64,000 nt of DNA from Convolutriloba macropyga (Eukaryota), in assembly GCF_964194025.1 (NCBI RefSeq), contig NC_134471.1:31496001-31560000 (forward strand), written 5' to 3'. Positions 9,426 to 42,472 of the stretch are shown one piece after another. Position 1 is the first letter of the stretch. Each line of letters begins with the position of its first letter. Both the position numbers and the translations under genes were made by a program. The notes under the pieces were generated by a model, which worked only from the letters and a program-made list of their open reading frames with translations, had not been told where the DNA came from and searched no databases.

Positions 9426-9499
9426 CATTATCAATGAGCTATAGTTGAAATGTTTTTTATCATAAATGATCTAACAGGCACTTTTAAGAAGCCATTTTT

Positions 9500-17765: not shown

Positions 17766-18845
17766 AGTTATCAAAATTGACCGGTCTGTAACAGATGACA
17801 CAATGCGAGATCTCTTTATGTTGGCCAGTCAAACTTGACAAAAAATATAACAAATCGAAGACAAAGATATAAGCCGAAGACCTGCCTGTGCGATAAGACT
17901 CAATTTAAAATTTTTGGGGGGCTGAATAGTTAAATTAGTTAAACAGATTGTATAAGTGAACAAGCTTACACTGAGAAGTAATTAGTCGGGTTGAGCTGAT
18001 AGTTGATGAAGTTGTTCTTGTCCAGGCACGTCTTTTAACTGTAGTTAACTTCCTCGTAGTTAAGTTAATTCTTCTTTTTGAAATGTTGATAAGTTTTAAA
18101 ATTTCTTTTTTAAATTTAGAAGTTTGTTTATGCAAAAAAGGAAGCAGTTGCTTGCTGCTGATTTCTGGCTCTCTTGTGTCTCTCTAATTTTATTCCGTCC
18201 CACTTCGCTGAGAGAAACACTAAATTCTTCTCAACTCAGTTTGGGCCGATAGGGAGCAAATCACACACTCACGCTCATAGTGAGGTGCTGCTTAATTTTC
18301 CTATTGGCCGAGAAGGCAAGAGAATTAACTCTTTTTATCTCACGGAACAATTATTGAAATTCCAAAAAATATTAAAAGTCTAAAAAACAGCATCAATTAT
18401 TGATCACGTAGGCGCCTGCTTTCTGCTTTTCCCCTCTTGTAAAACCACAGCAATTATGAATTTCTTGGGGGCCTTTTTTGGGGATCTATTGTCTCTTCCC
18501 CTGAAGCAATCCGCTTCATCCTTATTGAACTTAGGGGAAGAGATCTGCATTGCAACTGTCAAAAGCAGAAGCAAATTAAATCAAAAGTAAGTGCGGTTAT
18601 ACAGGCCGCCTACGCTGAACAACGTACATTTTCTATCCTGGATATAAGCGAGGAGATCTAGATTTAAAGTTGTGTTAATATAAATAAGTCGAACTAAGTT
18701 GTTTAGATACTTCTGTACTGGTAGTCTTAACGAGCGTTAATTTGTTTAGCGCGCAGTGAAAGAATGGTTAATTAACGCCTAAATACGTTCGCCCTAATGC
18801 GTGATTAATTATTCGTTCATTTGTAACGGTTTTCGTAATACTACA
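17766..18845 (-). repeat. 3' LTR (1080 bp)
   Basis: Direct repeat of 38940-39933 (compare ORFs 18174 and 39281, MCLSNFIPSHFAERN...). The minus strand starts TGTAGTATTACG and ends TTTTGATAACT. Confidence 0.92.
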
Positions 18846-18860
18846 GCTCACCCCGATTTT
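18846..18860 (-). promoter_or_regulatory. Weak polypurine-tract candidate
   Basis: Minus strand AAAATCGGGGTGAGC directly precedes the 3' LTR; only partly purine. Confidence 0.35.
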
Positions 18861-19089
18861 AAGATAGAAATATTATGATTAAAAGAAAAGAAATATACTG
18901 CATCATAAATAATTTTATTGCGCTTGGGACATATGAATGAGTTACTACAATGTCAGTAAACCTTTTGTCAACACAAGTTCAGACGGCTGTGAAGAAATAA
19001 GATCGCAAAAGGTGAAAATGTCGTCTGTGTATAATGTTGATCACAAATGGCGACTGGTGCAAAAAGTTTCGCAAAGGGCGGTGGCCATG

Positions 19090-20400
19090 TTAGACAAAAA
19101 AATCTGGTGGTAAGATGACCGGGCTTGTTACAGGACTGGCACCGTCGTCCAATATATCGAACACTTCCACAACTTTTTCTTCATTTTGTGTATTTAGTTA
19201 CTGAGATGATGATGCTATTACCACAGTTTTTCTGTCTATTTTTTTGTGGCTTCCGATTGACTTGTTTCTTCGCGTTTAATTTTTCGACTTTTCTTGGTCT
19301 TCATTTTTCTTACTTCGCAATTGAGCTCTTTAATATTTTGCAGAAGCATTTTATTTTCAATGCCTAGCTTTTGATTCGCTGATGTGATTTCTGAGATGTT
19401 TCTGGGCATACACCTTTTTCATTCGTTTTAGATTACTGTCTTCAGTTTTCTGGAGTTGTTTTGTTATCACATACTGACGTCTCCATTAGTCATCGCTGGT
19501 GCTTTTTTCTTCTCATCACTTTCCATGTTAAGATTCTCAAATTTTATTTGCAATTCCGTATCTTTTTTGAAGAGCTCTTGCCTGAAGCGGTTGTTTTCTG
19601 TGATTTCCTGGACTTTCCTTGGACCTTTCCCTACAATGAAAGGATTGCGTTTATAGCATCGTAAGGGATGTTAATGTAGACATCCAGCTGGTGATTTCTG
19701 TTGCTATATGTTTTCGTTTCTGGATCCCCGTTTTTATCCTCCACGTGTTAGATTCTCTGCTTAGGTTGAAACATTTTACGAGAGGCAATTTTGAGAGGCC
19801 TCGATTTCAAGAAGCGGTCCTAATTCGTAGCATCGTTCCAAACTTTTACACATTCTAAAGTTGTGAATTATTTGTATCTTGTTTTGAGTGCGTATTTTAG
19901 GTGGTTGACAAATGTCGGGTTCTCAGGATTCAGGTCTGATTCTCTGCTTCGTTGTACACGCAAGAAGTAGTATTTGTTCATCCTATCTTCCTCGGATAAG
20001 AGGCCATCAATATTGGCTAAATTTCGCATGGACTTTTTCCGCATGGTCGTTTATCAGAGTTTGTGAGAGGCATCCTTTGCGGTTTACTTTCCAGTTAACT
20101 TTAGGGTCGTATTGGTTGGAAGTTAATGGAGTGGGCAGTTGTGGTTTGATGGGTTCAAACGGAGGAATTGATGTTTTGATTAGCTGGTCAGTTTTCCTAA
20201 TTTGATTTGGGTATGTTGAAGGTTGTTCATGAGGAGTGTAAATTTTTCGTGTAGAGGAATGATTCATGTTGATGGTCTGATTTTGATCGGTTGTGATGAT
20301 CACACTCTTAAGTGTTGCTTGGCTGGTCATTGTGATGTATGGGATCTAAAATTTTTTGTGATTATGTTGCCTGTGTTACAAGTATCACACATTATGGCTT
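19090..20400 (-). pseudogene. Decayed accessory ORF(s): P/T/Q-rich segment followed by a K/E-rich coiled-coil-like segment
   Basis: ORF 20007..20330 and the frame-broken continuation ...KVQEITENNRFRQELFKKDTELQIKFENLNMESDEKKK... Confidence 0.4.
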
Positions 20401-20576
20401 CTGTTTCTTTCTGGAAATTTGTTACTATAAAAAAAAATAAAAATGTTTTTCTGCTAAGTGCAGTTTTGATTTTTTAGGTAACAAAAAAAGTTTTTGAAGT
20501 GTTTTTGTTTTGCTAAATTCAAAGTTTATTTATTTTTTAAGGAGAGGGGGTAATAATTAAAAAAATTCATACTTAT

Positions 20577-20697
20577 GCCAGGCGGGCAGCTCTGACACAA
20601 GTACGTCTTTCTCCGCTGCCCGGAGGTGTGAGTCTTGGGGGTGTGTGTCACACTAACACGGCTGCAACTGCCCGTGCAGCTGGGGAGACACCCTGGC
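20577..20697 (-). ncRNA. Candidate structured cis-RNA element inside the retroelement
   Basis: GC-rich island. Closing stem GCCAGG/CCTGGC; hairpins CAGCTGC/GCAGTTG, GTGTTA/TGACAC and GGGCAGC/GCTGCCC. Confidence 0.45.
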
Positions 20698-20869
20698 TGA
20701 GCTGAAAAAAGGAATTGTTTGGGAATTTTTGTCGGAAGTTTGGATTATCGATCAGAGGCCAGGGGGGACAGGCTGGAGAAAGTTGAGGTAATCACTTCCC
20801 GAGGAAAAGGTGAAAAAAATATCGTTGTGTTTCAAGTTGTTTTGATCTATTGAACAACGTCATCTGAAA

Positions 20870-21180
20870 AATTTTTCCAAATGGGATATTTTGTGTGCTC
20901 ATTTGTACATAATCGACAGAATCGATTATCCTCATGTTGGGATAAATGTGGATGTTTTGTCACTTCTAATTTTGTTTTCATTTTGTTGCATAAATTAGTA
21001 GGATGTGATCAGGACGGGGAGACAAGATCGCAGACAGATGGGGCTTTCAGGGTTAGGGTATCTTTTAAAAAGTGCTTTTCTGCAAGGAACATATACATAT
21101 TGAGTATTTTCCTTGGGGAATTGTTTATGTAGTTTTTTTTACGACCACGGTTTTGCGGGAATTTATTGGGCAAATAATGT
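20870..21180 (-). pseudogene. RING-like Zn-finger accessory ORF, paralog 3 (decayed)
   Basis: ICPINSRKTVVVKK/LHKQFPKENTQYVYVPCRKALFKRYPNPESPIC ... FCRLC; frameshift in an A-run. Confidence 0.55.
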
Positions 21181-21258
21181 CCTTAATGGGATAGAGCCAA
21201 CAAAAACGGTACAATAAGGATTGTGAGAGACCAATCGAGTGACTGTTTTTTATTTTAC

Positions 21259-21459
21259 TTAGACAAAAACAGGAAAAAATTTGAGAAACTGGAGAATGAT
21301 GATGTTAATGAGGAACGATATGGCAAGCAAATTAATTAGGATTAGGATAAATATTGTTGTTGGTAGGTCTAGATTGGTCATTTTCGGTATCTGGAAAGAA
21401 TTTGGCCAGTTGCAGAAAGGAGATAATGATTGATAAAAAGTGATATTGTCAAAGCGCAT
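21259..21459 (-). CDS. Small ORF with a strongly hydrophobic, TM-like segment
   Basis: ...TTIFILILINLLAISFLINIIILQFL...; AT-rich DNA can give such runs by chance. Confidence 0.35.
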   Translation of the reverse strand: MRFDNITFYQSLSPFCNWPNSFQIPKMTNLDLPTTIFILILINLLAISFLINIIILQFLKFFPVFV

Positions 21460-21651
21460 AGCAAAACAAATAAAAGAATAAACAATATTATTGGGTGCAT
21501 TTTATCAGACCAATGAATAGTGTAGATTTATAGTGAAGAAAGTGGCTTGTTCTTGGTAAAAACTCAGGTGAGTCAGGGAGATCGAGTGGATTAGCAGTAA
21601 AACAAACAGAAAGGGAATTAAAATTTGTTAAGTTTTCGGATGCATTTTAGC

Positions 21652-21990
21652 TTATACGAATGTTTTTTCGCAAAGGGGGCGCAATATGTAATCTTTTCGG
21701 CAAACTTTACAGAAGTTGAGGGGTTTCTGATCATTGTGATGAAACGTTTTTGCAACAGAATGTTGAAGCCTTGTTTGTTTGCAAACATCACATTGGAACC
21801 AGTTAAAGATTGAAAAGATAACATTAAGTTTAGAGCGTTTAGGGCAGAAGTCAAAACCCATATCTCTTATAACATTTTGATAACAGAGCAGACACATTAC
21901 GTGGGGTATTTTGTTAGGGAGGTTCTCGTGTAGTTTCTTGGAGACAATTGTGTCGCGTCTGCAGCATAGACAAATTAATGGGACCGGTTT
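21652..21990 (-). pseudogene. RING-like Zn-finger accessory ORF, paralog 2
   Basis: In-frame upstream extension of ORF 21652..21897: ICLCCRRDTIVSKKLHENLPNKIPHVMCLLCYQNVIRDMGFDFCPKR...FQCDVC...FCKVC...PLC. Confidence 0.6.
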
Positions 21991-22384
21991 GGATTCTTCA
22001 GTTTTGATTCCTTTGTCAACTTTATTCGTATTTGGGAGGGGATTTCGTTTAAACTATTTGAGGTATTGGTTGTTGAATATGTTGGGATTTGATTGTTTGA
22101 TTTATTACCAATGTACTTATTAACATCAAAAAGTTGAGAGGCATACTTATAACCACGACGAAAGCAGTTAAAAACAAAAATCAAGTATTGTTGCTGTAAA
22201 TAATGTGAAGGGTTTGTGAACTCAGTTTCGAATCGGAGGTTTTACCAAGGATGTTTTTGATCAATGGTTTGTTTAATTAAAGGTCATTTTGGGTTGGTAA
22301 AGGTCATACATTAACAACAATTTTATTTTCCAGGGGTGTAAATATATGAGATATCTGTGGCAAGTGAATAACTTTTTGATTTCT

Positions 22385-22570
22385 TGTTAGGAGTCACACT
22401 GGAAATAATAGCAATTACTAATAGTATAAATGGAAGTTACACAAATGGGACAGTTAGGTTTGCTCCAATAATTAAATAACTCATTTCTACAGGGAATACA
22501 CGCGAAATGGGGATTTTTTAAATTGACGGAAAAAGCGATAACAAATAGGGCATTCGATTTTAGGAGTTGA
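22385..22570 (-). pseudogene. RING-like Zn-finger accessory ORF, paralog 1
   Basis: ECPICYRFFRQFKK/NPHFACIPCRNELFNYWSKPNCPIC...FQCDS*; one frameshift. Confidence 0.6.
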
Positions 22571-22615
22571 GTCAGTTTGTAGTTGCTGAGAAAAAAATTT
22601 TCAAAATGTATCCCA

Positions 22616-25600
22616 TTATACTGACAAATCAGAGATATTTGGGTATGAGACTTCTAGTCCATGGTGTTCAAGTTCATTGGGGATAGTTACATTTAAATCT
22701 GCAATAGCAAAAAAAAATTCCAGTGTCGATCGTCTGGATAAATGTAATAATGATTTATGGTACCTGTGCTTAAGAACATATAAGTTATTTTTATACATGC
22801 TTTATAGTGTTTGTAACAAAAGGTAAACCATCTTTCTACTTTAAAAATTTTTAATTTTTCCTTACGAACGAACAAAATCATTTTGTTTTTGACAATTTGG
22901 TAGAAAACGAGGGAACAAGAACAAACTGATCGGGATACAAATGAATTAACAGGAAAGGAAAAAAAGAAGGGATAAAAAATGAGCAGGGAGAAAACTGTTT
23001 AATGAAGAGCGCCCAAGTGGGCAGTGCTCTTCGATATCAATGAGGGCTAGGAAGAATTCCCAGTGCGTCATTCCAATGGTGATTCGTGTAGTACCCTTGC
23101 ATTCACGTTTGTAGTCTGTATAATGGATAATGATACAGGCTTCAATCTCTCCGGTGGGAGTTTCAGTGAACGACCTCCCGAGGGACTCTACTTTAACTAG
23201 GCGGTTACCAAAATTGAACAGCATTATAGAAGATCTAAATTAAAAGGGATTTTGGTGCCATTTAACGCTTGGGATATTTTTATAAAAAAATGTCCAATAT
23301 GGGGAAGATGGTGTTAAAGTAATAGTGCCATCAGTCCAAGTATTTAAATATTCAAAATGTATTATTAGTTGTGGGATTACTCTGTTACTTTTTGTCGTGA
23401 CAAATGGTTTTTCAAAAATTGAAATTGTACAAGGCAGTTTTGGTATGAGAATATCTTTGCTGTTTTTAATTATTAATTGTGTCCAACTCGTTTTGACAAG
23501 AATCAGTTTTTGGCAGATCAAAAGAAATATTGTGAGGAACACAGTTTGGATTTTCTAGAATAAAGATGAAGAATTTCGCAATGGATTGAGAGAGGGTTAC
23601 TACTGTTTAAACCAAAGGTTTCACTTTGTATCTCTTTGAGTGTTACTAGCATGGTGGGAACAAGAGTTGGGTACGCATCAAAAGATCGTTGAATTTCGTG
23701 CAATTCTACAAATTTATTGTCAACTGCAAATATAACAGTTTGGAATGCTGGTAATTGAGCAATGTAGATTGGATGTCGAACTTCAAATATCGAGTTCTTT
23801 TTGTTAGCTAGAAAAATGGTTAATTCGGCGAATTGAGGATGGATTATGAAGATAGTTTACAGTCTATAAATATTGTCATAGGTTTTTTCACGAAAGTCAT
23901 TTTATTTATAGCAGAGACATTGTAGTTGTTTGTTAGTTCATTGTTTTTCCTTTCAAAGCTATGTATTGACGTAAGCTTATTTGAAAAAAATTAATGATAT
24001 AAAATTGTCAATTTTGGCTAAAAGCAGGATTATTGACAACGATTGCTATTAATAGATAATCCATCAATCGAATTCGCTTTAGCAAGATTGGAGTAGGTGA
24101 AAATTCGGGTAATAAATAGATGGACACAATTAGGATTAAAAAGTTGAAACTGGATTATAAGAAATAAAAAAAAACCAAAAGATTCCGCAAATTTCCCTCA
24201 AGGTTGAACTTATAACAGAATTCAAAATCTAGTAAGATTTTTCGTCAGGTACTTGAAACAATTTTCTATCCGATTCCAATGTTTACAAATTAATTATGTC
24301 ATCAACCAGGTCCCTTAACAATAAGAAATAATAAAAATTTGAATGCGGTACGTCCAGATCAGTAATGTCACTAAAATAGAACGATGCAACTCTAAGAGTT
24401 ACATTACTTCCTAAGGTAGAAATACTTGATGATACCATTTGTCCGGTGTATTGTCCCAATCTAACGAATAAAGCGTTAGGCTGTTCAATGAATTTGGGCT
24501 GCCTAACATATCGTCCTTGAGGTGTATCTGAAAAAGATGTTAATTAATTGGTAGAGTCTAACACATATAACTTTCATCAATTTTTGGGACAAACCTCCCG
24601 AGGGACTCTACTTTAACTAGGCGGTTACCAAAATTGAACAGCATTATAGAAGATCTAAATTAAAAGGGATTTTGGTGCCATTTAACGCTTGGGATATATT
24701 TATAAAAAATGTCCAATATGGGGAAGATGGTGTTAAAGTAATAGTGCCATCAGTCCAATTATTTAAATATTCAAAATGTATTATTAGTTGTGGGATTACT
24801 CTGTTACTTTTTGTCGTGACAAATGGTTTTTCAAAAATTGAAATTGTACAAGGCAGTTTTGGTATGAGAATATCATTGCTGTTTTTAATTATTAATTGTG
24901 TCCAACTCGTTTTGACAAGAATCAGTTTTTGGCAGATCAAAAGAAATATTGTGAGGAACACAGTTTGGATTTTCTAGAATAAAGATGAAGAATTTCGCAA
25001 TGGATTGAGAGAGGGTTACTACTGTTTAAACCAAAGGTTTCACTTTGTATCTCTTTGAGTGTTACTAGCATGGTGGGAACAAGAGTTGGGTACGCATCAA
25101 AAGATCGTTGAATTTCGTGCAATTCTACAAATTTATTGTCAACTGCAAATATAACAGTTTGGAATGCTGGTAATTGAGCAATGTAGATTGGATGTCGAAC
25201 TTCAAATATCGAGTTCTTTTTGTTAGCTAGAAAAATGGTTAATTCGGCGAATTGAGGATGGATTATGAAGATAGTTTACAGTCTATAAATATTGTCATAG
25301 GTTTTTTTCACGAAAGTCATTTTATTTATAGCAGAGACATTGTATACTGCTAAAAGCTCAAAACTTTGATTTTCGATTCTGACCTGTAAGTTTCTATTAG
25401 TTAAGTGGATCACAATTGCTGGTCTAGTTCTTTAAGCAAACTAATAGGATCAAATTGTGCTAAATAAACAAAATAGTTCCAATACAACAATTGAGGGGTT
25501 TAAATGACACTATCGTTTTCCTGCGTGTCCCAAAGTTCGAACTTTATAACCATTTGAGGGAAAATGTCTCCGTGATTTTCTTCAAATGTTTTCTTTATTT

Positions 25601-26260
25601 GATAGATTGATCAAGTGGATCTTGAAACAAAAAGTACATTAATTGAGGCGTATTAGTTGTTTGTTAGTTCATTGTTTTTCCTTTCAAAGCTATGTATTGA
25701 CGTAAGCTTATTTGAAAAAAATTAATGATATAAAATTGTCAATTTTGGCTAAAAGCAGGATTATTGACAACGATTGCTATTAATAGATAATCCATCAATC
25801 GAATTCGCTTTAGCAAGATTGGAGTAGGTGAAAATTCAGGTAATAAATAGATGGACACAATTAGGATTAAAAAGTTGAAACTGGATTATAAGAAATAAAA
25901 AAAACCAAAAGATTCCGCAAATTTCCCTCAAGGTTGAACTTATAACAGAATTCAAAATCTAGTAAGATTTTTCGTCAGGTACTTGAAACAATTTTCTATC
26001 CGATTCCAATGTTTACAAATTAATTATGTCATCAACCAGGGCTTTAACAATAAGAAGTAATAAAAATTTGAATGCGGTACGTCCAGATCAGTAATGTCAC
26101 TAAAATAGAACGATGCAACTCTAAGAGTTACATTACTTCCTAAGGTAGAAATACTTGATGATACCATTTGTCCGGTGTATTGTCCCAATCTAACGAATAA
26201 AGCGTTAGGCTGTTCAATGAATTTGGGCTGCATAACATATCGTCCTTGAGGTGTATCTGA
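22616..26260 (-). pseudogene. Tandem array of paralogous ~75-aa 'W-x-F-F' accessory domains of unknown function
   Basis: Units at ~22616-22881, 22946-23224, 23240-23480 (=24644-24900), 23500-23740 (=24920-25160) and 25430-25640 share an alignable pattern; 26024-26260 may be a more distant member. Confidence 0.6.
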
Positions 26261-26322
26261 AAAAGATGTTAATTAATTGGTAGAGTCTAACACATATAAC
26301 TTTCATCAATTTTTGGGACAAA
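23173..26322. repeat. Near-identical tandem duplication X-Y / X'-Z-Y'
   Basis: 23173-23924 = 24593-25344 and 23925-24593 = 25656-26322; the segment 25345-25655 (311 bp) is absent from the left copy. Confidence 0.95.
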
Positions 26323-26529
26323 TTTTTTTAAATATAAAAAGACTACTTTCACGACTTTGATCACAGCTTTAGGGAGGTGGAACACACTTCGAATGTTAGC
26401 ATCATTTTATTGTTGTGGTTGATGCGACTCGAGACTTGGGTATGCTGGTTTATTATTTTCAGTATTTCAATGCTGATCAATTTTAGTTTCTCTTTGTTGG
26501 TCCTTAACACACTTTTAACTTTGTTCTAT

Positions 26530-28639
26530 TGTGCTGTAAGGATGATAATTACTACGTGGTAAAATTGATTGGTGCTCTGTGGAGCCGATGGTCTCGTTTC
26601 GCTGGAAAATACCGATGTAAACAAGGATAAGATACAAAGATTTTAAGTTGCTCCTTATTAAATTTTCGAAAAACCCATTGTTTCGTTGGATATTCTGTGG
26701 ATTTCGAATGCTCTAATGATAATTACAATTACATCAGTTAAGAAATTTATTCACAAGAAACGAGCAAAATAAACTCCAATTTTTTCCAGATAAAAAGTGA
26801 TGATTCCAAAAGTGTATGTGAAACCAGAGAGTCTAGATAAATTTGTCTATTAATGCCCATTGCTGACGCATAGATATCTTTTTGTGAATAGTCTATGCTT
26901 CATCCTTCTAAAAATTCTCTGAAAATTTTTATCAAAACAGATTTTGATGCTTCCGAGTGCAAGATATTGTCCCAAAAAGATTTAAGTTGATTTGGTGTGT
27001 AACTTACGTCGTAATTCGTAACCGGTAAATTTTGAAACAGAACTAACAACTCTTGAATAGAATACTTTTGGCGGTTGTAAAGGAACAAGTGCTGGCATCA
27101 AATGGTACCATGAATTTTCATTATCAATATCTAACTGGTAGGCATTTTTGTAGCCTCCAACACAATCTACTTCGATTGCAAATGGATAGCTTTTTCGAGT
27201 AATTGGGTCGACGAATATTGTCCAGTCACCATAGTGAATAGGAATCCTATCATAACACTGGTCAAGAAGCCCAAGTGGTGATTTTTGTTCTGGACAGTTG
27301 TACAGCCGACCTATGCTACCATCTGTGTCTAAAAACATCGAGCGGTTGCCGGTTAACATGTTTCGAGCTAAACGATTAATTTGGATAGCCAGCATGAGTA
27401 TCATTTGTTTTTGAGTTCGATCAAGTTCGCATTGCTCTATAACCAAACTTTTCCATGCTTGTTTTAATGGTTTGTAATTATGGTATATGACAAAATCCAT
27501 TTTTACCGCAAGGTTAAGATCATAGTCCAACTTGTCTTGTCGGATAATCGGATCTGGTCATCTGAAGGCTTCCTATTAAATCCATTTACACTTAGGCTGT
27601 TGTCAGGATCAATAAAAAGTTTAAAGAAAAAAACGTTTAATTTTTGACTTATAAGTTTTGACAGTCTTCATATTAAATCCGCCTTTATAAGAAACATAAA
27701 AAGAATCTGAATTTGTTCTGTAAGTAAACGCTGGTTTTCCACACACCCTTTCCTTTTGATCAACTACTCTAATCTTTATGTCCATTTCAGCAGGAGAATA
27801 CGTTCCTAGTCCATCATATGGCGTCTCCGGTTTTTCATCACTCAATATGAAATATTGTACGTTACCAAGTTCGTTTTCATGTTTTAGCATTTTTGCATTT
27901 TGTGAAAGCCTTTAGTAACTATACAATTTTCCGGTTCCTACCAATTGCATGCAAAAGGGTCGAGTGATGTCAAATGACAACCTCCTTCTGAGAGGGCACA
28001 AGGAAGTTTTAACCCTTGACTGTAATAGACAGATCTGTCATTAAGATCAAAATCGAGTAGAAAAAAGTTTAATTTTATTACGGTTAACAAAAGATGTTGA
28101 TGAGTCACCTTCAAGATCAACTCCCTGGTTTTTATAGGAGACCGTTTTCATTGTATGTTTTATGTCTACTTCCATATCATTATCATCAAATTCGGTAACA
28201 GTAATTTTACAGTTTTATTGGCAATTAGACATCGTTCTGGTGAAACAATAATGTCGTATGTTATTATTGGGGCGTTGTGTACAATTGATGAATGGCAAAA
28301 CATACCACAATTATAATGAATGAGCACCGCAGTGACTTTGCACATAAGAGCTTTAACAAAGGCATGATAAGAACGCTGATAATGAGTTACATGTGTATCA
28401 ACCATCTGAATAATTTCGGGTGTGATTTTGCCAGGAGAAACTTGTGTTAGAGCATACATTTTATTTTCTTTCATTTTAGAACAGTCATAGTGAATGACCC
28501 TAAGTTTCCTAAACACATCATTATTATCCTCAAATGGACGTTCAGTAGCGTTAATAACAATAAAAAGAGTACAACAGTAGAAAAGACTTACAACTAAATA
28601 AGGAAAATAGAGTTTATCGAAATAAAGAAATCTTTTCAT
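26530..28639 (-). pseudogene. env: env, chuvirus-G/gB-type (class III) glycoprotein-like, frameshifted
   Basis: Signal-like N-terminus MKRFLYF...VVSLFYCCTLFIVINA; HYDC; CKV...NCGMFCHSSIVHN...SPERC; LPC.LSEGGC; EQCELDR...LYNC...CYDRIPI...FVDPITR...EVDC; C-terminal TM-like TFGIITFYLEKIGVYF...TDVIVIIIRAF. Confidence 0.8.
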
Positions 28640-28918
28640 CCTGGTATTTTTAGCTCCTCAAGTCGAGAGTTAAGGCCATGAGTTGTAGTTAAAGGCACGT
28701 CCAGTAATAGTTGACTGATTTTATTGTTACCTAAAACAAAATCAAGTTAATCCGGCTTGATAGCGTGATGGCGGCTTGGCCACGCGACTAGAAGTTCGCC
28801 TATTGTTGTTATTTTCTAAAGTTTGCAAACTAGGTCCTTATTCCGATCTATTAGGGCGGGGAGGACTTAAAATTTGGTCTAATGGTAATCTGGAATTGTT
28901 CTGTGGGCAAGGAGTTGA

Positions 28919-30315
28919 GTAATTATGATATATGACAAAATCGATTTTTACCGCAAGGTTAAGATCATAGTCTAACTCGTCTTTGTCTAAGTGTTCCCAT
29001 GCAACAAAACCATTGTCGGATGTTCGGATCTGGTCACTTGAAGGCTTCCTATTAAACCTTTTTACAATAAGGCTGTTGTAAGGATCAATAAGAAGTTTAT
29101 GAAAGAAAAGTTTAATTTTTGACTGATAAGGTTTGCCAGTCTTCATATTAAATCCGCCTTTATAAGAACCATAAAAAGAATTTGTTCTGCAAAAAAAATT
29201 CTGGTTTTCCACACACCTTTTCCTTTTCAACAACTACTCTAATTTTTATGTCCATTTCAGCGGGAGAATAAGTTTCTGGTCCTCCTTAGGGCGTCTCCCG
29301 TTTTTCATCACTCACTGTGAAATATTTTACGTTACCAAGTTAGTTTTCATTTTTTTAGCATATTTGCATTTTGTGAAAATCTTTTAATAACTTTACAACT
29401 CTCCGGTTCCTCCCAATTGTATGCAAAAGGGTCGAGTTATGTCGAATGACAACAGCCTCCTTCTGAGAGGGCACACGGAAGTTTTAATCCTTGACTGTTA
29501 TAGACGGATCTGTCATTAAGATCAATAGCGAGTAGAAGAAAACTTAATTTTACCACGGTTATCAAAAGATGTTGATGAATCAATTTCAAGATCAACTCCC
29601 TAGTTTTTATAGGAGACTGTTTTTATTCCATGTTTTATGTCTACTTCCATGTCATCATCATCAAATTCGGTAACAGTAATTTTCCAGTTTTATTGTCAAT
29701 TAGACATTGTTCGGGTAAAACAATAATGTTATGTTATTATTGGAACGTTGTGTACAATTGATGAATGGCAAAACATACTACAATTATAATGAATGAGCAC
29801 CGCAGTGACTTTGCACAAAAGAGCTTTAACAAAAGCATGATATGAACGCTGATAAAGTTTTACATGAGTATCACCATCTGAATATTTTAGGGTGTGATTT
29901 TGCCAGGAGAAACTTGTTTTAGAGCATACATTTTATTTTCTTTCATTTAAGAACAGTCATAGTGAATGACCCTTAAATTGCTAAATACATCATTATTATC
30001 CTCAAAAGGAGGTTCAGTAGAGTTAAAAACTATAAAAAGAGTACAAAAGTAGAAAATACTCACAACTAAATAAGGAAAAGACTCACAACTAAATAGTCCT
30101 TATTTAGTTGTAGAAAAGACTCATAACTAAATAAGGACTAAATAAGGAAGAGAGTTAAGGCTATGAGTTGTAGTTAAAGGCACGTCCAGTAACGCCTATT
30201 GTTGTTATTTTCTAAAGTTTGCAAACTAGGTCCTTGTTCCGATCTATTAGGTCGGGGAGGACTTAAATTTAGGTCTAATGCTATTCTGGAATTGTTCTTT
30301 GTGCAAGGAGTTGAG
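28919..30315 (-). pseudogene. env: Diverged tandem duplicate of the pol 3' tail and env 5' half
   Basis: Aligns with ~27474-28918 with scattered substitutions and complementary indels. Confidence 0.85.
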
Positions 30316-30769
30316 CTTCTTGTTCGACTACCAATGGGCAGGTTTGTCTGGACTAAAGGGTGGCTGTCACGACCACCTGATTTTGCTTCATTAAACCCAA
30401 AATCAAAATTGGTAGGAGTTCGGTCAGCGTCTAAGTTCTGCACGGCTGAATCTCTTCGTATGAAATTCTCCACGAGGAAATGTTCGGTGTTAGTTGGGCT
30501 TTGGAAGGAGAACTTAGTCAAAGGACTGTTGAGTTTATTCAATTGAGTTGTCATTAAGTTATTATAAAATGTATCACAATTATTTTTATCTATACCATAT
30601 TCTAGGGTTAACTCTGGTATGTTTTCAGTAGCTGTGTAATACTCAACTAGGTGATTTCTATGAGCAACCTATCCTGGTAGCTATCCGGGCAACTTTCCGG
30701 GCAACTTTCCGGGTTGTTATCTAAAGTTATTTCTTAGTTGATTTTGGTTAATTTTTTAGCTACAGTATG

Positions 30770-31620
30770 AGGACCTGATCTCAGCTCGTGTAGTTTTTGT
30801 GACGTTCCTAGCTCAATTTGATGGTTTTCCTTTCAAAATTGTCCAATCTCCAGTGGCTTACCTTACTTGTGTTTATTTCTGTGTTTATGTCTGCGGTTAT
30901 TATTTTCTAGGCTCTTTTCATAAGCGTTGTTATATATTTGTTTAAATTCATTTTCTCGCATGAGCAATGAATTGCTGACAGTTGGTTTTAGGAGTTTGTC
31001 AATTTCTGTGTTTTTGGAAGTTTGCAGGGCATGCCTGTGAAGAGGCAGGTCTTTGCAAAACTCGGAGGAGCATGTTAGTTGTGAATTTCGTAGAAGTCCT
31101 AACTTAAGTGACAGAGGTATCTGTGGTTTTTTATCCGAACACAATTTCATAAGGTGAGATTCCAGTACTAGCATTTAGAACCGCGTTACGAGAAAAAGCA
31201 AATTTTGGTGCCAGTTCATCCCATTGACCTTGAGCATGTTCTTGAAAAATTCGGAAATGTGCTCCTAAATGTTTGTTTTGGATCTCGACTTTACCATTAG
31301 TCCAAGGCTCATAAGCAGTTCGAGGTGCGTGTGTTATACCTAAGTCATGAATATAACTCGCAAAATCTTGGTTCATGAATGCCGAACCCTTATCATACAC
31401 AAGTTTTTGCGGTATTCCAAAAGACAAGATTAACCTTTCTAAAGCTTCTAAATCTTTCTTCAGGTTTTCAATACATTTATACATTCCGGGCCATTAAAAA
31501 AATCACTTTACTTTAGCAAGTGTTTTATCTAAATCTGAAATACCTGACAGTTTGCAATGAGCTAACTGAGAAGCTTCAAAAAACAATGAAAGCGGTACAC
31601 ATATTTTCAAAAACTCAATA
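30770..31620 (-). pseudogene. pol: Integrase (internally deleted)
   Basis: WPGMYK fused to FGIPQKLVYDKGSAF...RTAYEPWTNGKVE...STGISPYEIVFG; GPY-like RSGPHTV near 30770-30790. Confidence 0.9.
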
Positions 31621-32449
31621 TCCGGTTCGTCTGTTTGTTATTGAATACATAATATGTTATCTACAAAACTCAATTTTTCAAAGTTATTATTATACGACAT
31701 TATGGCTTTAAATTGTCGAAATTCAATTTTCTTTTCATCTTTGTTATTGATCGTCCTTAATTGACGAATTTGTTGTAGCACTGGGTCTTATAATTGTTCT
31801 TGACAAATAACCGATGTATTTCAATCAACTTCCTTAGAGAAGGATGTCAGTTTATCGATGAGTTCTCATCATTCTTTTATTTTTGGATTTCGGGGATTTT
31901 TTTGCTAATTCGATTTTATCTATACAAGTACTATTCTTCACGAGAAAATTTTTATTGTATTCTATAGGGAACCTATACTCCAAGTCTGTTTTATTAGTTT
32001 GACCAATTTAGAATTTGTCAAAATTTAATTCCGTCGACTGGTTCTCACTGAACAACTCAAACTCCAAAATTGGGTAAAATTTTTGTTCGGTTATCTGTTT
32101 CTCGAGATAGGAATGAGTTTTTGTATAGTAATCAGACATTTCATCCTCCTCCTGTTCAAATACAGGGGTTGTTTCATGTTCGCCGTGACGCCTGTAGGGG
32201 TTAATTGATGAACCATACGATAAATCTTCCAAAAAATTGTTTTTTGAGCAAATTCTGTTTTGGTGGTTGTCGTGTTTTTGCATTACCATTTTGTCGTTTT
32301 CGAAATTGAATTTGTCGATACCCCTTATGCTTGGTTTTAGGATTGGAAAAAAATCATCTGCTGGTTCCTTTTCATTATCACGCAAAATGAAACTTTTTTC
32401 CTCATTACCATGCTCGTCGTAAAAACTAATGTCTTTGGTATCTTTTTGT

Positions 32450-33985
32450 GTTGAAGTTGATACATAGGATGTCGGGAGAAGCTTAACTTTTGAAATTGTT
32501 TTGAAATTGAGAGATTACTAACTGGTATCTGAAAAACCTGCGAGAGAGTTTTCCTCTTCTACCCCATAGATACATTAAAAGCTTATGGTCTGTGTACTCT
32601 TATACGGGATGAGGAGAACCAATTAGGTAATGCTCATAAGTTTGTAATGCATATCTTACACCGCAAAGTTTGGTGCTGTGGTGCTCATTTTTTGTTCCTC
32701 TTTATAAGTTCTAGAGTTAAAAGACACTATTCGTTTCCCTTATGGAAATTCGTGAACGAGAATTGAGCCTACTCGTATAGAAGAAGCGTCTACATGCACG
32801 TGGAAAGGCTGTTTAGTATCAGGTATTGCAAAGACATATTCGCTAATCCTGGTTTATATGTCATTATACGATTTTTCGTGTTCCGTTGTCCAGACAAATT
32901 TAGTTTTTGTGCGGGTTAGGTCATAGAAGGGATTGCAGTCAAAGTGCAAATTTCTGATGAACATGCTGTAGAATCCTAAGCAACCTAGAATTCTCATGAC
33001 ATTGTTTTTTTCAGGCGACTTAAGTGCTTTTAAATCCGTTACTCGCTTCTTGACTGGCTGTATTCCATCTTAACCTACTACGTGTCCCAAGAATTGTACT
33101 TTCCTAACGAAGAATTTAGTCTTTTCGGGTTGAGCTTTCAACCCTGATTTCCTTAAGAATTCGTAGTAGTTGTCAATTATTTCAAATATTTCGGTTTGGT
33201 CTTGAACTTGCATGATAGTGTCATCAATGTAGATTATGGCGTGTTTTTTTTCTGATTAGTGGTGCACAGTGAATAGCCAGTATACGATTGAGGAAATTAG
33301 GTAGACCGCATAGTCCATAAAATCCGAGTTCAAATGTGTATTGCTTTGGACCAATTACAAAACTTACCAGCTGTTTGGTTTCTTCGGTTAGAGGGACCTG
33401 GTTATAAGCTGACCAAATATCACAGGTTGTGAAGAAATTACCTTTCAGTCTAGTTAATGGGCTTTCTATTGGTTTGTGTGGCCATGAATATCGACTCAGA
33501 TCTGTTATTGAACTCAAATGTCGGGCGTCTATAACCAGTTTTACTGTGTTCCCCTTGGGTAAGATTATGATTGGATTAATAAATTGTGAACCCATTTCTT
33601 TATTGTTACCCAATTTCCGGATTATACCTGTTTTACACAGTTGTTCCAAAAAATTTTCTAGTTTTTCCTGAAAATGTAATGGTACTTTGGATGGTCTCTG
33701 TTTTGTTAAAGTTGAATTAGGTAAAAGTTTGACATGAAATTTTTGATTTATCTTTCCAACATCGTATTTGTGTTGAGAATAAACGTCCTTATTATTAGTT
33801 CTCATTAACTTGTCTAAGCTTTCGTCATTGGTTTCAGCTTGACTGAAATCAAACCTTTTGAGAAATGTTTGGTCGGTTTTGTCAAATCTGTTTTCTTTGG
33901 GAAGATCAACGGGTCCGATCTTTTCATCAGTTGATTCCAATTGCGGCTTTAGATCCTTGAGGTCGTCGCTAAAGTTTAATTCCAA
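32450..33985 (-). pseudogene. pol: Reverse transcriptase and RNase H
   Basis: NPIIILPK...KLVIDAR, TTCDIWSAYNQVPL, GFYGLCGLP, AIIYIDDTIM (~33215-33240), RNase H PFHVHVDAS (~32785-32810). Confidence 0.95.
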
Positions 33986-34461
33986 TTCGTAGTTGTTGGT
34001 AAAATCTTGCTGTTTAAGTCGCTTTTCTGTTTGCTTTTGTTTTTCAGAAGTTTTGTTGGATTCGAAGAATTTTTACTTTTTGAAATTTTTGCACCTTGTT
34101 TTTCACATGGAATATTTGATCCCAATTAGTGTCACTATACATTAGGTTGTTTATGGTTGCAACGTTGTCAACTACAGAAAGTTTTGGGTTTTGTCGAATT
34201 TCAATGTCTTCTAAAGTGTGCCCAGTAGGACCCTTTTGGATGACAACCTTGTTGTTTTGGGGATTGCTTAGCATTATTGGTAATTCTTCTTCTTTTCTAA
34301 AACACTGAACATTGTAAGTATAAATTCCTTGAGCCTGTAGTTCACTTCCGATTACAAAGGAGGTTCCTTTTTTGAAAAATTCATTTGGTGGTCTGTCTAA
34401 TTGATATTACGCGAGCTGATTTTTGTGCTCATGGTAGCTGCTAATCAAGAGTTACAATTTT

Positions 34462-34860
34462 TTAGGAACTAAAGTACGGAAAGCTTTTCGTTTGGTATCT
34501 AGATAATTTGACGTCTACATCAGTGTAAGCTTTTAAATCAATTTTTGGAGTTCTTATGTCCATGGATTTCAGTGTAGATTCAAGCAAGTCCATTCTCAAC
34601 AAGTTCGAGTTGCTACCATTTTTGGCTGAAGCACATGCGGTAAATTCGACTTGATACTTTCCTTCAATGTTGACGGAAGTTTTAAAAGTAGTTTGACATA
34701 GCACTTTTAGTTTCTCGCCATTAACCGCTAAAGTATGATTTTTTGAAGCCTTCATCTCAATATGCCGTGTTTTGCATATTTGAATGTAAGTTTGGTAATT
34801 AATCAAAGAGCTTGATGCTCCTGTGTTCAATAAAAACTGTGTTTCTAAACCGTTATTTTT
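34462..34860 (-). pseudogene. pol: Aspartic protease
   Basis: FLLNTGASSSLIN (LDTGA with catalytic D replaced by N) ... NLLRMDLL. Confidence 0.85.
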
Positions 34861-35199
34861 ATTTTTGTCTCGGAGGGATTGATATAAATTAATAAAAAAT
34901 TGTGAATAATTTGCTTTGTTTTCAGTAGTGCTTATGTACGGAGATCTGTCTAGTTTAAGTACTTGTCGTTGTAATTCTCATCATTGTAATAGCCTCTGGG
35001 AGTTTCACTAGTAAAGTGGACTCGAGGGTTTCGCCCTTCACTGTTATCTCTTGAATGAATAGCATTGTTTTGCCTAGTAGGTGTCCTATCACGGTCATGG
35101 ACTCTACTCCTCTCACGATATTGATTATCTGATCTTGAAGGTGCGTTGCTTTGTCTATCGCTACTATTTTGCCTATTGCTATCTCTATAGGAGTTGTTT

Positions 35200-36260
35200 C
35201 AATAGTAATTTTGTCGTTCCTGTGATCGGTCATCGTAAGATGATGATCGGTAATTGTCTTGAGGAGTTTGATGGGTACGGTGATCGATGTCGGTAGTCTG
35301 ACCTAGAGTTGTTTTGATAATTCGATTGATTTTGTTTAAAACTATTTCTGTGTCTGTCCCTAGAAATTTGATTGTCAAAATCGTTTGCTCTGGAATGTAG
35401 TTGACCTGGTGAATGGTTCCGACTGCGTTTATAATTATTTGTTACCCGTTCGCGATGTTGAGGGCTTCCAATTTTCGTTTTTATAATCTTTGTACTTAAA
35501 GTAAAATGCTATTGTGTGACCAGAACGTTTGCAAAACTTGCAGAATCTAGGTTTTGTTTAAATCTGAGATTGTTACTGTTGTAAGTAGCGTTTATTTTGT
35601 GATCTTTCATGAGATTGGGAATTTCTGTGAGTTGGTTCTTTAACCCTATAATTTCTTTTTTTATTGTCAATACTACTTGAGGCGGTACCCTTGAATTCAC
35701 TCCTAACAAAAAAACTTAAGTCCTTAGTCTCTACATGATCCTTTAATTGTTGCCATGTTGTTTTTAGGGTTTCTATTAACAACTGATGTGCCTTTTGCAT
35801 AAGTGCAGGTGGCGTTAGTTGTCTTGAAAAGTACTCCATACACTTGGCGGTATGCTGGTCGTTGTTAAATTCTGGATCTGGCCATCTTGTTTCAACTGCT
35901 TTTGATACTCGTTGAGTATAGCTTTTTATCAACTCATCTGGCTGCCTTTTATTAATCTCCACTTCACTCCTTTTCCTGTAATTATCTTTTGCATCAGTGA
36001 AACGGTCAATGAAATGATTTCTAACTTCCATGCTAAAGCTGGGGCTAAGGTTTCAAACTATTGGGCTGCTGGCCTACGTGAAACCCAACCGAAAAACGCT
36101 TTTTGTCTAGCGTCGAATGCTGCTTACGAGTCAGCATCAGCCGGATCTTTTTTTTCTTAGCGAGAATTGGATTTCTCTTTGTATTAAATTGAAGAATTCC
36201 GGGGCATCTTCAGATGGATCTTAAACTGTAAATGAAGAGAATAACCTGTCTTAACCGGTT
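35200..36260 (-). pseudogene. gag: gag (capsid-like region, CCHC knuckle, R/S-rich tail)
   Basis: DPSEDAPEFF..., ORF 35573..36031 (FIDRFTD...RQPDELIKSY..RV), knuckle CKFCKRSGHTIAFY at ~35500-35545. Confidence 0.8.
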
Positions 36261-38920
36261 TTAGATTATTGAGAGAAAATGTTATATGAGTGTACTATTA
36301 GTTTGGGTAATTAGTGTAGAAAATAATTTTGTTATAACATATGGGTAATAAAAAACTAATACTAAAGTAGAAATTTGAACTGTTTGTTTTGTGTTATGAA
36401 TTTTATTTGTTTTGGACCAATTAATGATTGTAGCTTAAATTCAAAAGTTTTGCCGTCATCAGTGCTAAAAATTTCCACCCAGGAGAAAATATCGGTTTGC
36501 TAAACGGTAAAATTTAATAACCAAGGATAAGTGTTTTCTGAGTGTTTTAAATTCAACAGAGTTTTGGAGAAAAGTTTACTTTTGAAAATCTAATTTGTGT
36601 GACTAATTTTGTTTTTATGAGTAGTTTAACTCTATTTGGTTAACTCGGATCGTCAGGCGAAATGTTGATGTATTTGGGTTTAAATATTTTTTGAAATTTG
36701 TAAACCAAACGGGGAAATTATATTTTGGTGGCTCATCCACACACAAGATGATAACGTTTATGCTAATTCTATCACACTTTTATGATTTCTTAGAGCAAAT
36801 AAAAGTCCATTAAAGTTTGGGTTAGACCACTTGTAAGTTCCACCTGTCCACTTCTGTGTTTCGTTAGGAGAATGATGGTAAATGCATAAAAAATTTCCGT
36901 TCTGATCAGTTAAATAGTATGAAACTTTGCTTATTTTGTTATGTTCTTTAATACTTAAATTTACACTCTGAATGTTTATTTTAATATATAATATATAAAT
37001 AACATAGAGCAATTGTTTTGTTGTTTTCTTATTTTATTTTTGTATGAATTTACACAGAAAACAGAATAAAAACTCTTAATACGGGATGTTTAGTACATCA
37101 GTAGTAGTATTTTAGTAGCAATTATTGTGTAGAAATATGTGGATATATAATGTTCTCAAAGTGCTTGAGTCTGTTAATGACCGTATTTTAGCAATGAACA
37201 ACACCTTTTTTGGTAAATTTGTGTACAAAATGGGTTATAAAAGGCTAGTTTACGCTTTTTTGTTTAATTGTTGGCAAAATTTTCTGTAAGAATCTCGCTC
37301 ATACTGTTTTTACTTTTTAATAAAGTTAGTAAATTCTGAACATTGTGGTTCTCAACTGCATACTTATATAAAAGATAAGCAGGGGAATTGTGATCAAACC
37401 CGTAGAAAATGGGTAAGAAGGTAATTCAGTCAGTAATAAACCGTGTTATTTTACACCTTCTAGTGTTTTCTATTGCTGTTAGATTAAGATGTTCTATAAT
37501 AACTATTCCAGTTTGGTTTATAATACACTGTTCAAAATCACTTTTGATTGTGAAATATGCAAAATATACTTGTGAAATTGCCAAAAATGTGGAAAATCTC
37601 ATCAATTTACTTTATTTTCAGGCAAAACGTTTATGCTGGGGGGATAAAATTGAGTATAAAATGTGCTATTATTTGTTAATCTAGTGCGAAATCGGGGTTT
37701 ATATTGTCAAAAATGGGTTAATAGTGACTATGGGTTAATACTGACTACAATTTTAAACAAAATGACATTAAATTGACTAAAATTTATATAATTTGTGTTA
37801 AAATAGTACGAGACTGGCATTTATTTGGCTACAATTTGATAGATATTTGATAAAAACATGTCCCAACTGAATTTAATTCTTGTAAAGCTAAGACAAAATG
37901 GTTATTTATTTAGTTGAAACGGTTAGTACGGTTTAAGACTGGACAGAATTGGTTTTTAATTGACTAAAATCTTATTATTTCCTGTTAAATTAAGATAAAA
38001 AATGACGTTAATTTGGTTAAAATCTGTTTAAAAATTGAGAAATTAGGACAAAATGATGTTTCTTTGTTTATTTGATTATTGTTATTGATTATTATTACCC
38101 CACCCGGGTCGATAAATGGATAAAACAGAGCGGATAGTCAACTGAGGAAGGCTTATATTTGACCAGAATTGGGCTGATTAATTTAAAAAAGCAATAATGT
38201 CTGCTTAAATTTGTTGAAAATTGGGTATATTTTACAATAAACACGCATTGGGGTGATGAATTCTGGTTAAATTTATTTTAAATCGTTTGAAAATGCTAAA
38301 TTTTGGGCAAAAATTCAGTGAAATCTACACATATAATACTCTAAATATGATTTGGTGGGGTGAATACTGGTTAAAATTCGACTATTTAGTGTAAAAATAC
38401 AAAAATTCAACTCCGAAGTTGTTGAAAAATGGTTAACACTTAGGCTAACTAGGTGTTGGTGCGACGAAGTTTGAACAATTTTTGGTTATTTGGTGTGTAG
38501 ATACTAAAATTTAACCATAAATGTGGTCAAAACTGGGTCAAAAATAGACCAAACAGGTTTTGAGGGGATGATTTCTGTATAAATTTTGGTAATTTAGGGT
38601 GAATTTACTAAAATTCGACCATAAATGTGGTGAAAACAGGGCAAAAATTATTTTAAACGGGTCGGAGTGTGAAAATACTTCAATTGTGTTATAAATAAAC
38701 TAAAAATTGGACATAGATTACCCCCACCCGGGTCAGAACAATTTTACAAGAGCAAAGAATCAGTTGCCTGTTACGATTTTAATGTAAATTTACTGTATTT
38801 CGGCCCTAAATTTGACATAAATTACTCTTGTTTGTCTGTTAGTGTGCTTTCACTTCTGTGGTAGTGGTTATTTTACTATTTCAATCCGATCGGATAGAAA
38901 AACAAAAATTCAGGCGTGAT

Positions 38921-38940
38921 TCTTTCCTCTGGGCGCACCA
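38921..38940 (-). promoter_or_regulatory. Primer-binding site
   Basis: Minus strand TGGTGCGCCCAGAGGAAAGA starts on the last LTR base (TGG is the complement of tRNA CCA); cognate tRNA not identified. Confidence 0.75.
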
Positions 38941-39933
38941 GTTATCAAAATTAGGTCTCATAATCTTAAGGCAAAGATATATGCCTAAAACCTGTCTGTG
39001 TGATAAGTCTCAATTCAAAATTGTTGGGGGGCTGAATAGTTAAATTAGTTAATTAGATAGTTTCAATAAATAAGCTTACACTGAGAAGTAATTAGTCGGG
39101 TTGAGCTGATAGTTGAAGTTGTTCTTGTCTAGGCACGTCTTTTAACTGTAGTTAACTTCCTCGTAGTTAAGTTAATTCTTCTTTTTGAAATGTTGATAAG
39201 TTTAAAAATTTCTCTTTTAAATTTAGAAGTTTGTTTATGCAAAAAAGGAAGCAGTTGTTTGCTGCTGATTTCTGGCTCTTTTGTGTCTCTCTAATTTTAT
39301 TCCGTCCCACTTCGCTGAGAGAAACACTAAATTCTTCTCAATTCAGTTTGGGCCGATAGGGAGCAAATCACACACACACGCTCATAGTGAGGTGATGGTT
39401 AATTTTCCTATTGGCCGAGAAGACAAGAAAATTAACTCTTTTTATCTCACGGAAAAATTATTGAAATTCCAAAAAACATTAAAAGTAGGCGATCTCGTAG
39501 GCGCCTGTTTTCTGCTTTCCCCTCTTGTAAAACGACACAAATTATGGTTTTCTTGGGGGCTTTTTATGGGGATCTTTTGTCTCTTCCCGTGAAGCAATCT
39601 GCTTCATCTTTATTGAACTTAGGGGAAGAGATATGCATAGCAACTGTCAAAAGCAGAAATAATTTGAATCAAAAGTAAGTGCGGTTATACAGGCCGCCTA
39701 CGCTGAACAACGTACATTTTCTATCCTGGATATAAGCGAGGAGATCTAGATTTAAAGTTGTGTTAATTTAAATAAGTCGAACTAAGTTGTTTAGATACTT
39801 CTGTACTGGTAGTCTTAACGAGCGTTAATTTGTTTAGCACGCAGTGAAAGAATGGTTAATTAACGCCTATATACGTTCGCCCTATTGGGTGATTAATTAT
39901 TCGTTCATTTGTAACGGCTTTCGTAATATTATA
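38940..39933 (-). repeat. 5' LTR (994 bp)
   Basis: Direct repeat of 17766-18845, immediately followed on the minus strand by the PBS. Confidence 0.92.

Positions 39934-42440: not shown

Positions 42441-42472
<32 letters not shown>

Follow-up and report, generated by a model that had tools for sequence, protein, structure and literature searches.

The general view is that a Ty3/gypsy retrotransposon has no more than two extra genes, and extensive sets of accessory genes are linked with the complex retroviruses of vertebrates and with large DNA viruses. In this work, we analyze a stretch of 64,000 nucleotides from Convolutriloba macropyga (assembly GCF_964194025.1, contig NC_134471.1, positions 31,496,001 to 31,560,000), hereafter called the window. 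It contains a broken genomic copy of a recently amplified, envelope-bearing Ty3/gypsy retrotransposon, which is 19.9 kb long when young and carries small accessory frames before gag and, above all, in a block between the envelope gene (env) and the 3' long terminal repeat (LTR).

Among described elements, the "ancient errantiviruses" of Chary and Hayashi (PMC13524379; this and the other papers are cited from the portions that we consulted) are env-bearing Ty3/gypsy elements with an env of the herpes simplex virus (HSV)/glycoprotein B (gB) type. They resemble the family studied here in the gag-pol-env order, the Ty3/gypsy pol, the gB/chuvirus-like env and the many near-identical copies. The flanks examined in that survey reached only 3 kb beyond env, or 5 kb beyond pol in some groups, LTRs more than 14 kb apart were left out, and the words "accessory" and "RING" are absent from its main text as consulted. 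Because of these short flanks and the limit on LTR distance, an accessory block of 6 kb lies outside its view.

Inheritance and content of the accessory block

The post-env block is an inherited part of the element and travels with it. Searching the source assembly (1.18 Gb) with a block piece, the LTR and the reverse transcriptase (RT) gave 204, 604 and 342 first-look candidates, respectively, of which 40 of each were scored; these figures are not copy numbers. The young copies of this family (hereafter family A) are 10 of the 11 LTR pairs with a spacing of 18.8-18.9 kb; since this set was selected by length, the test anchored on RT is the unbiased one. The block is carried by 36 of the 39 RT-anchored copies, and in 34 of them the third RING gene lies 8.7-10.4 kb downstream of RT. 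The remaining five comprise one with a block match, one whose sequence contains the whole block, two with tandem pol repeats before a block-bearing copy, and one that is broken at the start of env. Each of the ten young copies is 19.9 kb long, has LTRs that are 99.8-100% alike and the same array of frames, and aligns colinearly with the window copy at 76-87% identity. Target duplications of 4 bp flank all nine young copies whose ends were inspected, and full-length frames of gag, pol and env are found in nine, seven and seven of the ten, respectively.

In addition, 11 further loci were picked via matches to one of the accessory protein families (S family, see below). All of them have the same type of array, which lies directly behind env in ten and between LTR-like repeats, without pol or env matches, in one; among these 11 loci there was no free-standing array and no array with its own terminal repeats. 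The preliminary description of the window had assigned the block to the element, and this assignment has held up in the copies sharing the LTR and pol, in the blocks found elsewhere, and in the full-length copies collected from the source genome. Two other loci were noted: a family A LTR pair 9.9 kb apart with env in between (C4:65966603-65977551), probably an internally deleted copy, and a satellite-like, block-derived arrangement in which a piece of an S-family gene recurs about 15 times at ~760-bp spacing (C15:14013703-14028818).

Young copies contain 15 same-strand frames between env and the 3' LTR, filling 4,684 of the 6,158 bases of this interval, and three more before gag; all of them map back to the window copy. 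The post-env frames comprise five of the S family, two related to the L family (a1 and a3), three tandem-RING frames, four hydrophobic frames and one last gene, and true paralogs within the accessory set are 23-50% identical. We regard the accessory repertoire as almost certainly genuine. The preliminary description gave the block of same-strand frames as 7.7 kb; the block is real, with a size of 6.16 kb in young copies. Its internal paralog families are indeed deeply diverged families, with part of the repetition being local tandem duplication, and the description missed the three further small frames before gag (36380-37521).

The S proteins (76-94 aa) have an invariant M, F, W and F, and a model with a predicted local distance difference test (pLDDT) score of 92 shows four strands and one helix. 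No PDB sequence match was found for this family, and its best Atlas score (0.80) is not usable. Its profile retrieves 51 proteins without names among 1.84 billion, one of which has no match at E 1e-8 in the source genome and another 42% at best; one env relative reaches only 52% at best there. Relatives of the element probably exist in other assemblies, as judged from these searches, which were not exhaustive. The L-related group occurs both upstream of gag and downstream of env. By hhalign, a1 is weakly linked to the leader family (69%, E 4e-5) and the S and L profiles are not linked (probability 0.1); no Pfam family was found for the L family.

Each RING frame encodes two C2H2C4-like ligand sets with Cys/His invariant in eight aligned members, a pattern that we take to be "C2H2C4, MDM2-type"; the eight-ligand Cys/His zinc motif of RING E3 ubiquitin ligases is thus present twice per protein. 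The RING profile matches RNF4, TRIM32 and MDM2 (E 8e-7 to 2e-4), the RNF4 match being, on our reading of the alignment, an engineered two-RING chain, and none of the 30 relatives found with the profile carries a name. Most Atlas neighbours of z1 are RING proteins from large DNA viruses, with weak scores (0.85-0.90). Gly2 is kept in 32/32 copies of z1 and 32/33 copies of z3, which also keeps Ser6, and both starts fit predicted N-myristoylation, the motif being taken from PMC11952523. The hydrophobic frames tm and t1-t3 were considered as FAST-like fusogens of the sORF2 type (63-107 aa, with an MGxxxS/T start, a membrane segment and a polybasic tail) and rejected, as they have 36-67 aa and none starts with Met-Gly. 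Sequence, profile and fold searches found no named homologue of the accessory proteins and no significant viral fold match, where the lack of a match does not imply a new fold.

Four sister families (B, C, D and E) were found via two diverged env proteins, and two copies of each were examined. Relative to family A, their pol is 53-72% and their env 43-63% identical (61-72% and 50-63%, respectively, in B, D and E). Families B, D and E have colinear homologous arrays with three or four S genes, one or two RING genes and the last gene, and across the array-bearing families the number of paralogs varies (S 3-5, RING 1-3). Family C is 12.4 kb long with identical LTRs, and its only accessory gene is the last gene, a 587-aa frame behind env; this is the only accessory gene common to all five families. 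Family C also has gag and pol in one 2,050-aa frame and LTRs of only 367 bp. In family B, a 9.7-kb copy with LTRs 99% identical and a target duplication is without pol and most of gag and keeps env and the whole array; it is a recently moved non-autonomous derivative.

The last gene, a frame of 346-414 aa in family A, undergoes allele swapping between elements. Fifteen frames longer than 300 aa from 30 copies fall into at least four allele groups that are 43-57% identical, with one recombinant, and ten of the 15 have a short proline-rich C-terminal motif in common. Elements with different alleles are otherwise ~98% identical. For example, in one pair of such copies the identity per kb is 95-99.6% along the first 17 kb and falls to 68-71% in the following 2 kb. 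The window copy has a different allele from the reference young copy (33-36% identity). The protein is modelled as a beta-barrel followed by long helices. In young copies, the synonymous divergence of a5-z1 is 0.10-0.20, as against 0.02-0.05 in gag, pol, env and a1-a4, which suggests that the middle of the block has also been exchanged between sub-lineages.

Selection, expression and function

Purifying selection acts in a frame-specific manner on 13 of the 15 post-env frames, with a strength like that on gag or env. The ratio of nonsynonymous to synonymous substitution rates (dN/dS), a calculation already suggested in the preliminary description, points to purifying selection in most accessory frames: it is 0.03-0.47 in pairwise comparisons of 11 young copies (12 post-env frames) and 0.10-0.55 when the window copy is compared with a single young copy (11 of those 12 frames). 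Among variants shared by at least three of 33 copies, the ratio of nonsynonymous to synonymous variants (N/S) is 0.05-0.24 in 11 post-env frames (p 3e-6 or less), compared with 0.12 in gag, 0.12 in env and 0.05 in pol. In contrast, 24 shifted-frame controls give 0.62-3.94, none with p<0.15, and private variants give 0.42-1.05, nearer to neutral decay. The mini-frames t2 and t3 are also under selection. The selection is visible among variants that arose within family A, and because it acts during replication of the element, the accessory genes serve the element rather than the host. Three other frames were rejected as genes: a 42-aa frame behind a1 (N/S 1.09), a 60-aa frame before the last gene (N/S 0.74) and a +1 frame inside gag (N/S 2.38).

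The frames are closely packed, with 30 of 40 junctions between consecutive frames spanning no more than 50 nt, stop-start overlaps included, and stray ATGs are depleted in two leaders (observed/expected ratio, O/E, 0.44 and 0.38). We propose that the accessory frames would be translated from a polycistronic RNA, which is probably subgenomic and joined to an acceptor just upstream of the first post-env frame, and that they would be read by stop-start reinitiation or leaky scanning, the last gene possibly having its own promoter. Splicing to each frame separately was considered as well and is unsupported, since acceptor-like sites show no clear enrichment. The last gene is preceded by a conserved, GC-rich non-coding element that ends in a TATA-like run and is a possible internal promoter or RNA signal. 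It is found in family A and its relatives, and its 5' part is common to family D; it was not found in families B, C and E. Its folding is moderate (z -2.6 and -3.2 in family A, -0.8 in D), and the only Rfam matches in 50 kb were two chance hits to microRNAs within an AT repeat, so that we claim no RNA family.

As to function, we consider it reasonably likely that the family has about 18 inherited small accessory frames, most of them under purifying selection, that encode mainly host-manipulating proteins; host antagonism, which the preliminary description had raised as a possibility, is an inference. The tandem RINGs, of which two out of three start with Met-Gly, would act as ubiquitin ligases tethered to membranes and eliminate restriction or silencing factors of the host, and the small barrels would be diversified binding adaptors. 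The last gene, which alone is shared by all five families and is the most polymorphic, would be a regulator or the main contact point with host defence. A broader proposal, which we advance tentatively, is that these elements are invertebrate "complex" endogenous viruses: an independent radiation with up to 18 genes of undescribed families, growth by tandem duplication, chained reinitiation, myristoylated tandem-RING ligases, and a Tudor-like regulator held as balanced alleles, perhaps owing to an arms race with silencing by the host or to competition among elements.

Several observations weigh against host manipulation and against the proposed mode of expression. Transcript structure, translation and protein function of the block are all predictions from the sequence. 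Family C is young and intact with the last gene only, so that transposition as such can proceed without the array. In the selection analysis, tm, t1, l2 and l3 fall short of significance, variants shared by several copies do not count as independent events, and transition bias is left out of the site count, two flaws that the controls share. Depletion of ATGs within the arrays is mild (O/E 0.65-0.90) and significant in two of four. An acceptor-like site precedes the first post-env frame in four of four families, which is a post hoc observation, and such sites precede 20 of 61 starts, compared with 22% of background positions. With regard to folds, the best match of the S model is weak (EF-P-like domain I, Z 5.3, root-mean-square deviation [rmsd] 3.6, 58 aligned), the last-gene barrel weakly resembles PWWP, Tudor, KOW and SH3 domains, which are tied (Z 4.3-5.3, rmsd 2.4-3.9, 54-81 aligned), no Foldseek match with E <0.001 was found for the S-family or last-gene models, and the Pfam RING matches are below the curated cut-off (E 3e-4 to 4e-3).

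The alternative that survives best, which we judge rather unlikely, is that the accessory genes are real but serve the element's own life cycle, in RNA export, packaging of the 19-kb RNA, particle assembly or budding, or transactivation of reinitiation. In that case the RINGs would resemble arenavirus Z as a matrix/budding protein, and the last gene would act as a transactivator in the manner of caulimovirus TAV or Cer1 CERV. Small barrels of the SH3, KOW and OB-like types often bind nucleic acids or ribosomes, which would suit such roles, and the fold matches to these types are weak here. The selection is mainly purifying rather than diversifying, and arenavirus Z appears in the Atlas at 0.86, which is a lead only. 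The abutting frames and the last gene behind a TATA-like spacer also parallel the layout of cauliflower mosaic virus (PMC5902531). However, family C replicates with the same core and the last gene only, and the variable numbers of paralogs and the deep allele swapping of the last gene would fit host-facing genes better.

It is much less probable that the block is the remnant of a separate virus or element rich in small genes, captured once, with selection inherited from the donor. Its dense, abutting small frames do resemble a viral accessory region, and the Atlas neighbours of z1 point weakly to large DNA viruses. However, the selection shows in variants that have arisen within family A, the L family sits before gag as well as after env, none of the 11 S-picked loci has a free-standing array or one with its own terminal repeats, and profile searches gave only relatives without names. 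Finally, a one-off capture, a nested insertion or chance frames in an AT-rich spacer, peculiar to the window copy, can be dismissed: about 1.4 kb of the window block is indeed a tandem duplication peculiar to this copy, but the presence of the block in RT-anchored copies and in three sister families, together with the frame-specific selection, has already refuted this explanation.

Anatomy and classification of the window copy

The window element lies on the minus strand throughout, and pieces of gag, protease, RT, integrase and env are all there but broken (Table 1). Its LTRs differ at 58 of 990 aligned bases (5.9%), as expected of an old copy, and it is flanked by a 4-bp target duplication with one mismatch. 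The preliminary description had recognised both LTRs, which are confirmed with ends shifted from 17766-18845 and 38940-39933 to 17769-18845 and 38943-39933, as well as the primer-binding site (PBS), gag, the protease-RT-RNase H-integrase (PR-RT-RH-IN) region and env, all of which were recovered. The size of 22 kb that it reported applies to this copy, which is swollen by two local tandem duplications that are peculiar to it and amount to ~2.8 kb. The first (27474-28919 and 28919-30315, 87% alike) spans the end of pol and the first half of env, and the second (23173-24593 and 24593-26322, 99% alike) lies within the post-env block. The latter may be real or an assembly effect; three contig sets cover 30/30 bins of the window copy, a result that bears neither on this choice nor on expression.

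Table 1. Features of the window element (aa lengths refer to young copies; N/S is the shared-variant ratio among 33 copies)
Feature	Position	Strand	Remarks
5' LTR	38943..39933	-	~90 bp shorter than 3' LTR, near its own 3' end
PBS	38926..38940	-	2 nt behind 5' LTR; site shared with young copies, related ones in families B-E
Imperfect ~104-bp tandem repeats within long 5' leader	38207..38660	-	
l1, L family	37267..37521	-	85 aa; tblastn 73%; homologues in B, D; N/S 0.17, p 0.015, marginal
l2, L family	36761..36988	-	78 aa; N/S 0.37, p 0.08, not significant
l3	36380..36736	-	124 aa; broken; N/S 0.32, p 0.06, not significant
gag	34953..36250	-	broken; 444 aa; PF03732 E 4e-6 on young copy
pol, PR-RT-RH-IN	30192..34977	-	broken; -1 frame relative to gag
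Partial env copy	28919..30078	-	one unit of 1.4-kb tandem duplication, units 87% alike
env, gB/chuvirus-type fusion glycoprotein	26371..28639	-	broken; 782 aa
a1, L-related	26033..26233	-	94 aa; duplicate 24292-24501; N/S 0.06
a2, S family	25416..25610	-	80 aa; N/S 0.08
a3, L-related	25177..25413	-	79 aa; partial duplicate 23758-23948; N/S 0.12
a4, S family	24888..25155	-	94 aa; duplicate 23469-23736; N/S 0.16
a5, S family	24647..24876	-	77 aa; duplicate 23227-23454; N/S 0.05; model pLDDT 92
a6, S family	22997..23224	-	76 aa; N/S 0.05
a7, S family	22619..22881	-	88 aa; N/S 0.24
z1, tandem-RING	22245..22600	-	132 aa; Met-Gly start; N/S 0.12
tm, hydrophobic	22061..22171	-	67 aa; part matched; N/S 0.53, p 0.13, not significant
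z2, tandem-RING	21661..22026	-	125 aa; N/S 0.16
t1-t3, abutting hydrophobic mini-frames	21265..21645	-	45, 36, 40 aa; N/S t2 0.23, t3 0.14 (p<0.001); t1 0.68, not significant
z3, tandem-RING	20853..21235	-	130 aa; MGxxxS start; N/S 0.12
Conserved GC-rich non-coding element	20570..20690	-	ends in TATA-like run; upstream of last gene
Last gene, Tudor/SH3-like barrel + coiled coil (weak fold matches)	19096..20330	-	broken; N/S 0.13
Polypurine tract	18846..18860	-	similar tracts in families B-E
3' LTR	17769..18845	-	58 mismatches to 5' LTR in 990 aligned bases

The 2-nt gap between the LTR and the PBS is like that of elements whose integrase trims two bases; the PBS was not found in supplement 1 of PMC13524379 as consulted. 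The LTRs begin and end with TG...TA in families A and B, TG...CA in C and TG...AA in D (17769-17772 and 38941-38946 in the window).

In a young copy, a slippery-type heptamer lies at the end of gag, and gag-pol would be expressed by -1 frameshifting. The Pfam domains of young-copy pol are the protease (42-133), RT (515-636), RNase H (700-831), H2C2 (1151-1208) and rve (1231-1322), and the Pfam scan made no assignment for the stretch between RNase H and the integrase. In the ancient errantivirus group, a "mini" domain lies behind RNase H. In a ranking by similarity rather than by a tree, the best solved relative of pol is Ty3 Gag-Pol (E 4e-58), ahead of foamy-virus RT (E 9e-22) and integrase (E 3e-24). 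Env matches PF24664, the Monjiviricetes fusion family, with E 3e-9 and 2e-11 on the window pieces and E 7.6e-39 on a young copy. With hydrophobic segments at 10-33 and 638-703 and 22 Cys, it fits a viral fusion glycoprotein with a signal peptide and a C-terminal membrane anchor. No RxK/RR motif was found in four of five family representatives, and the fifth has one beyond the membrane anchor. Env has no PDB sequence match, and none of its 119 relatives carries a name. Relatives at 45-55% identity (clusters P0004 and P0005) are found, unlike the other clusters, on many contigs of 1-14 kb, which might be transcript assemblies of a related element.

Domain order, the similarity of RT and integrase, and the LTRs, PBS, polypurine tract and short target duplication all fit membership of Ty3/gypsy (Metaviridae), and by its sequence the element is best described as an errantivirus-type retrotransposon in the wide sense, that is, a gag-pol-env Ty3/gypsy element with a gB-type env. 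A complex retrovirus of the Retroviridae was considered and rejected, since pol is nearest to Ty3 and env belongs to the Monjiviricetes family and is not of the class I, furin-cleaved type. The term "invertebrate endogenous retrovirus" in the preliminary description is appropriate in the errantivirus sense only.

Around the element, Pro/Gln-rich open stretches lie on both sides (11917-12333, 16024-16422 and 43140-43562, plus strand). They may be exons of a host gene, in which case the element would sit antisense in an intron. The window also contains other interspersed and tandemly duplicated repeat families (807-11131, 40073-42661 and 52911-58168) and a 94-bp tandem pair (60225-60415).

Comparison with known systems

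The preliminary description singled out the element as the best candidate for an undescribed system in the window, and its accessory array is apparently undescribed: no description of such an element was found in the literature searched, most subscription journals and Repbase lying outside the search. The undescribed protein families are candidate transposon counter-defence proteins, of new kinds, against animal genome defence. The layout raises two testable questions: by what means an animal ribosome reads 14 abutting frames in a row, and how an RNA of 19 kb can be packaged and copied. Since the largest recent survey stopped at 14 kb between LTRs, elements of this kind may be widespread and have escaped notice.

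The planarian giant gypsy element Burro (GYPSM1, PMC6431247) shares env homology and has extra domains linked to ubiquitination and apoptosis. However, its MATH, BIR, BCL2 and ankyrin domains are joined with env in one polyprotein of ~4,900 aa, whereas in the family described here env stands alone and 15 individual small frames come after it, most of them from undescribed families. Other Ty3/gypsy elements have functional accessory frames, including small frames before gag: sORF1 and sORF2 of the MDG1 group (PMC11952523), CERV of Cer1 (PMC10309623) and ORF3 of bdelloid elements (PMC5408684). These have only one or two extra genes per element. In addition, sORF2 replaces env (PMC11952523), which is retained here, and CERV forms protein rings and is not a RING-finger protein (PMC10309623).

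Outside Ty3/gypsy, cauliflower mosaic virus (TAV/P6, PMC5902531) is likewise reverse-transcribing; its frames abut or overlap slightly, and a spacer with a promoter precedes its last gene. It is a plant pararetrovirus, and the analogy concerns expression only, with no sequence relation claimed. The foamy-like endogenous retroviruses of fish, AciFLERV and AliFLERV (PMC5512871), are 17.4 kb long and have post-env accessory genes, including one paralogous pair. However, they are true Retroviridae, and their five accessory genes encode 234-465 aa, as against ~18 frames of mostly 36-132 aa here. Accessory genes as such have precedents among these systems, but the number, the families and the layout seen here do not: 9-18 additional frames are maintained under selection in a young family of high copy number and in its three sister families, compared with five at most in the precedents found (AciFLERV).

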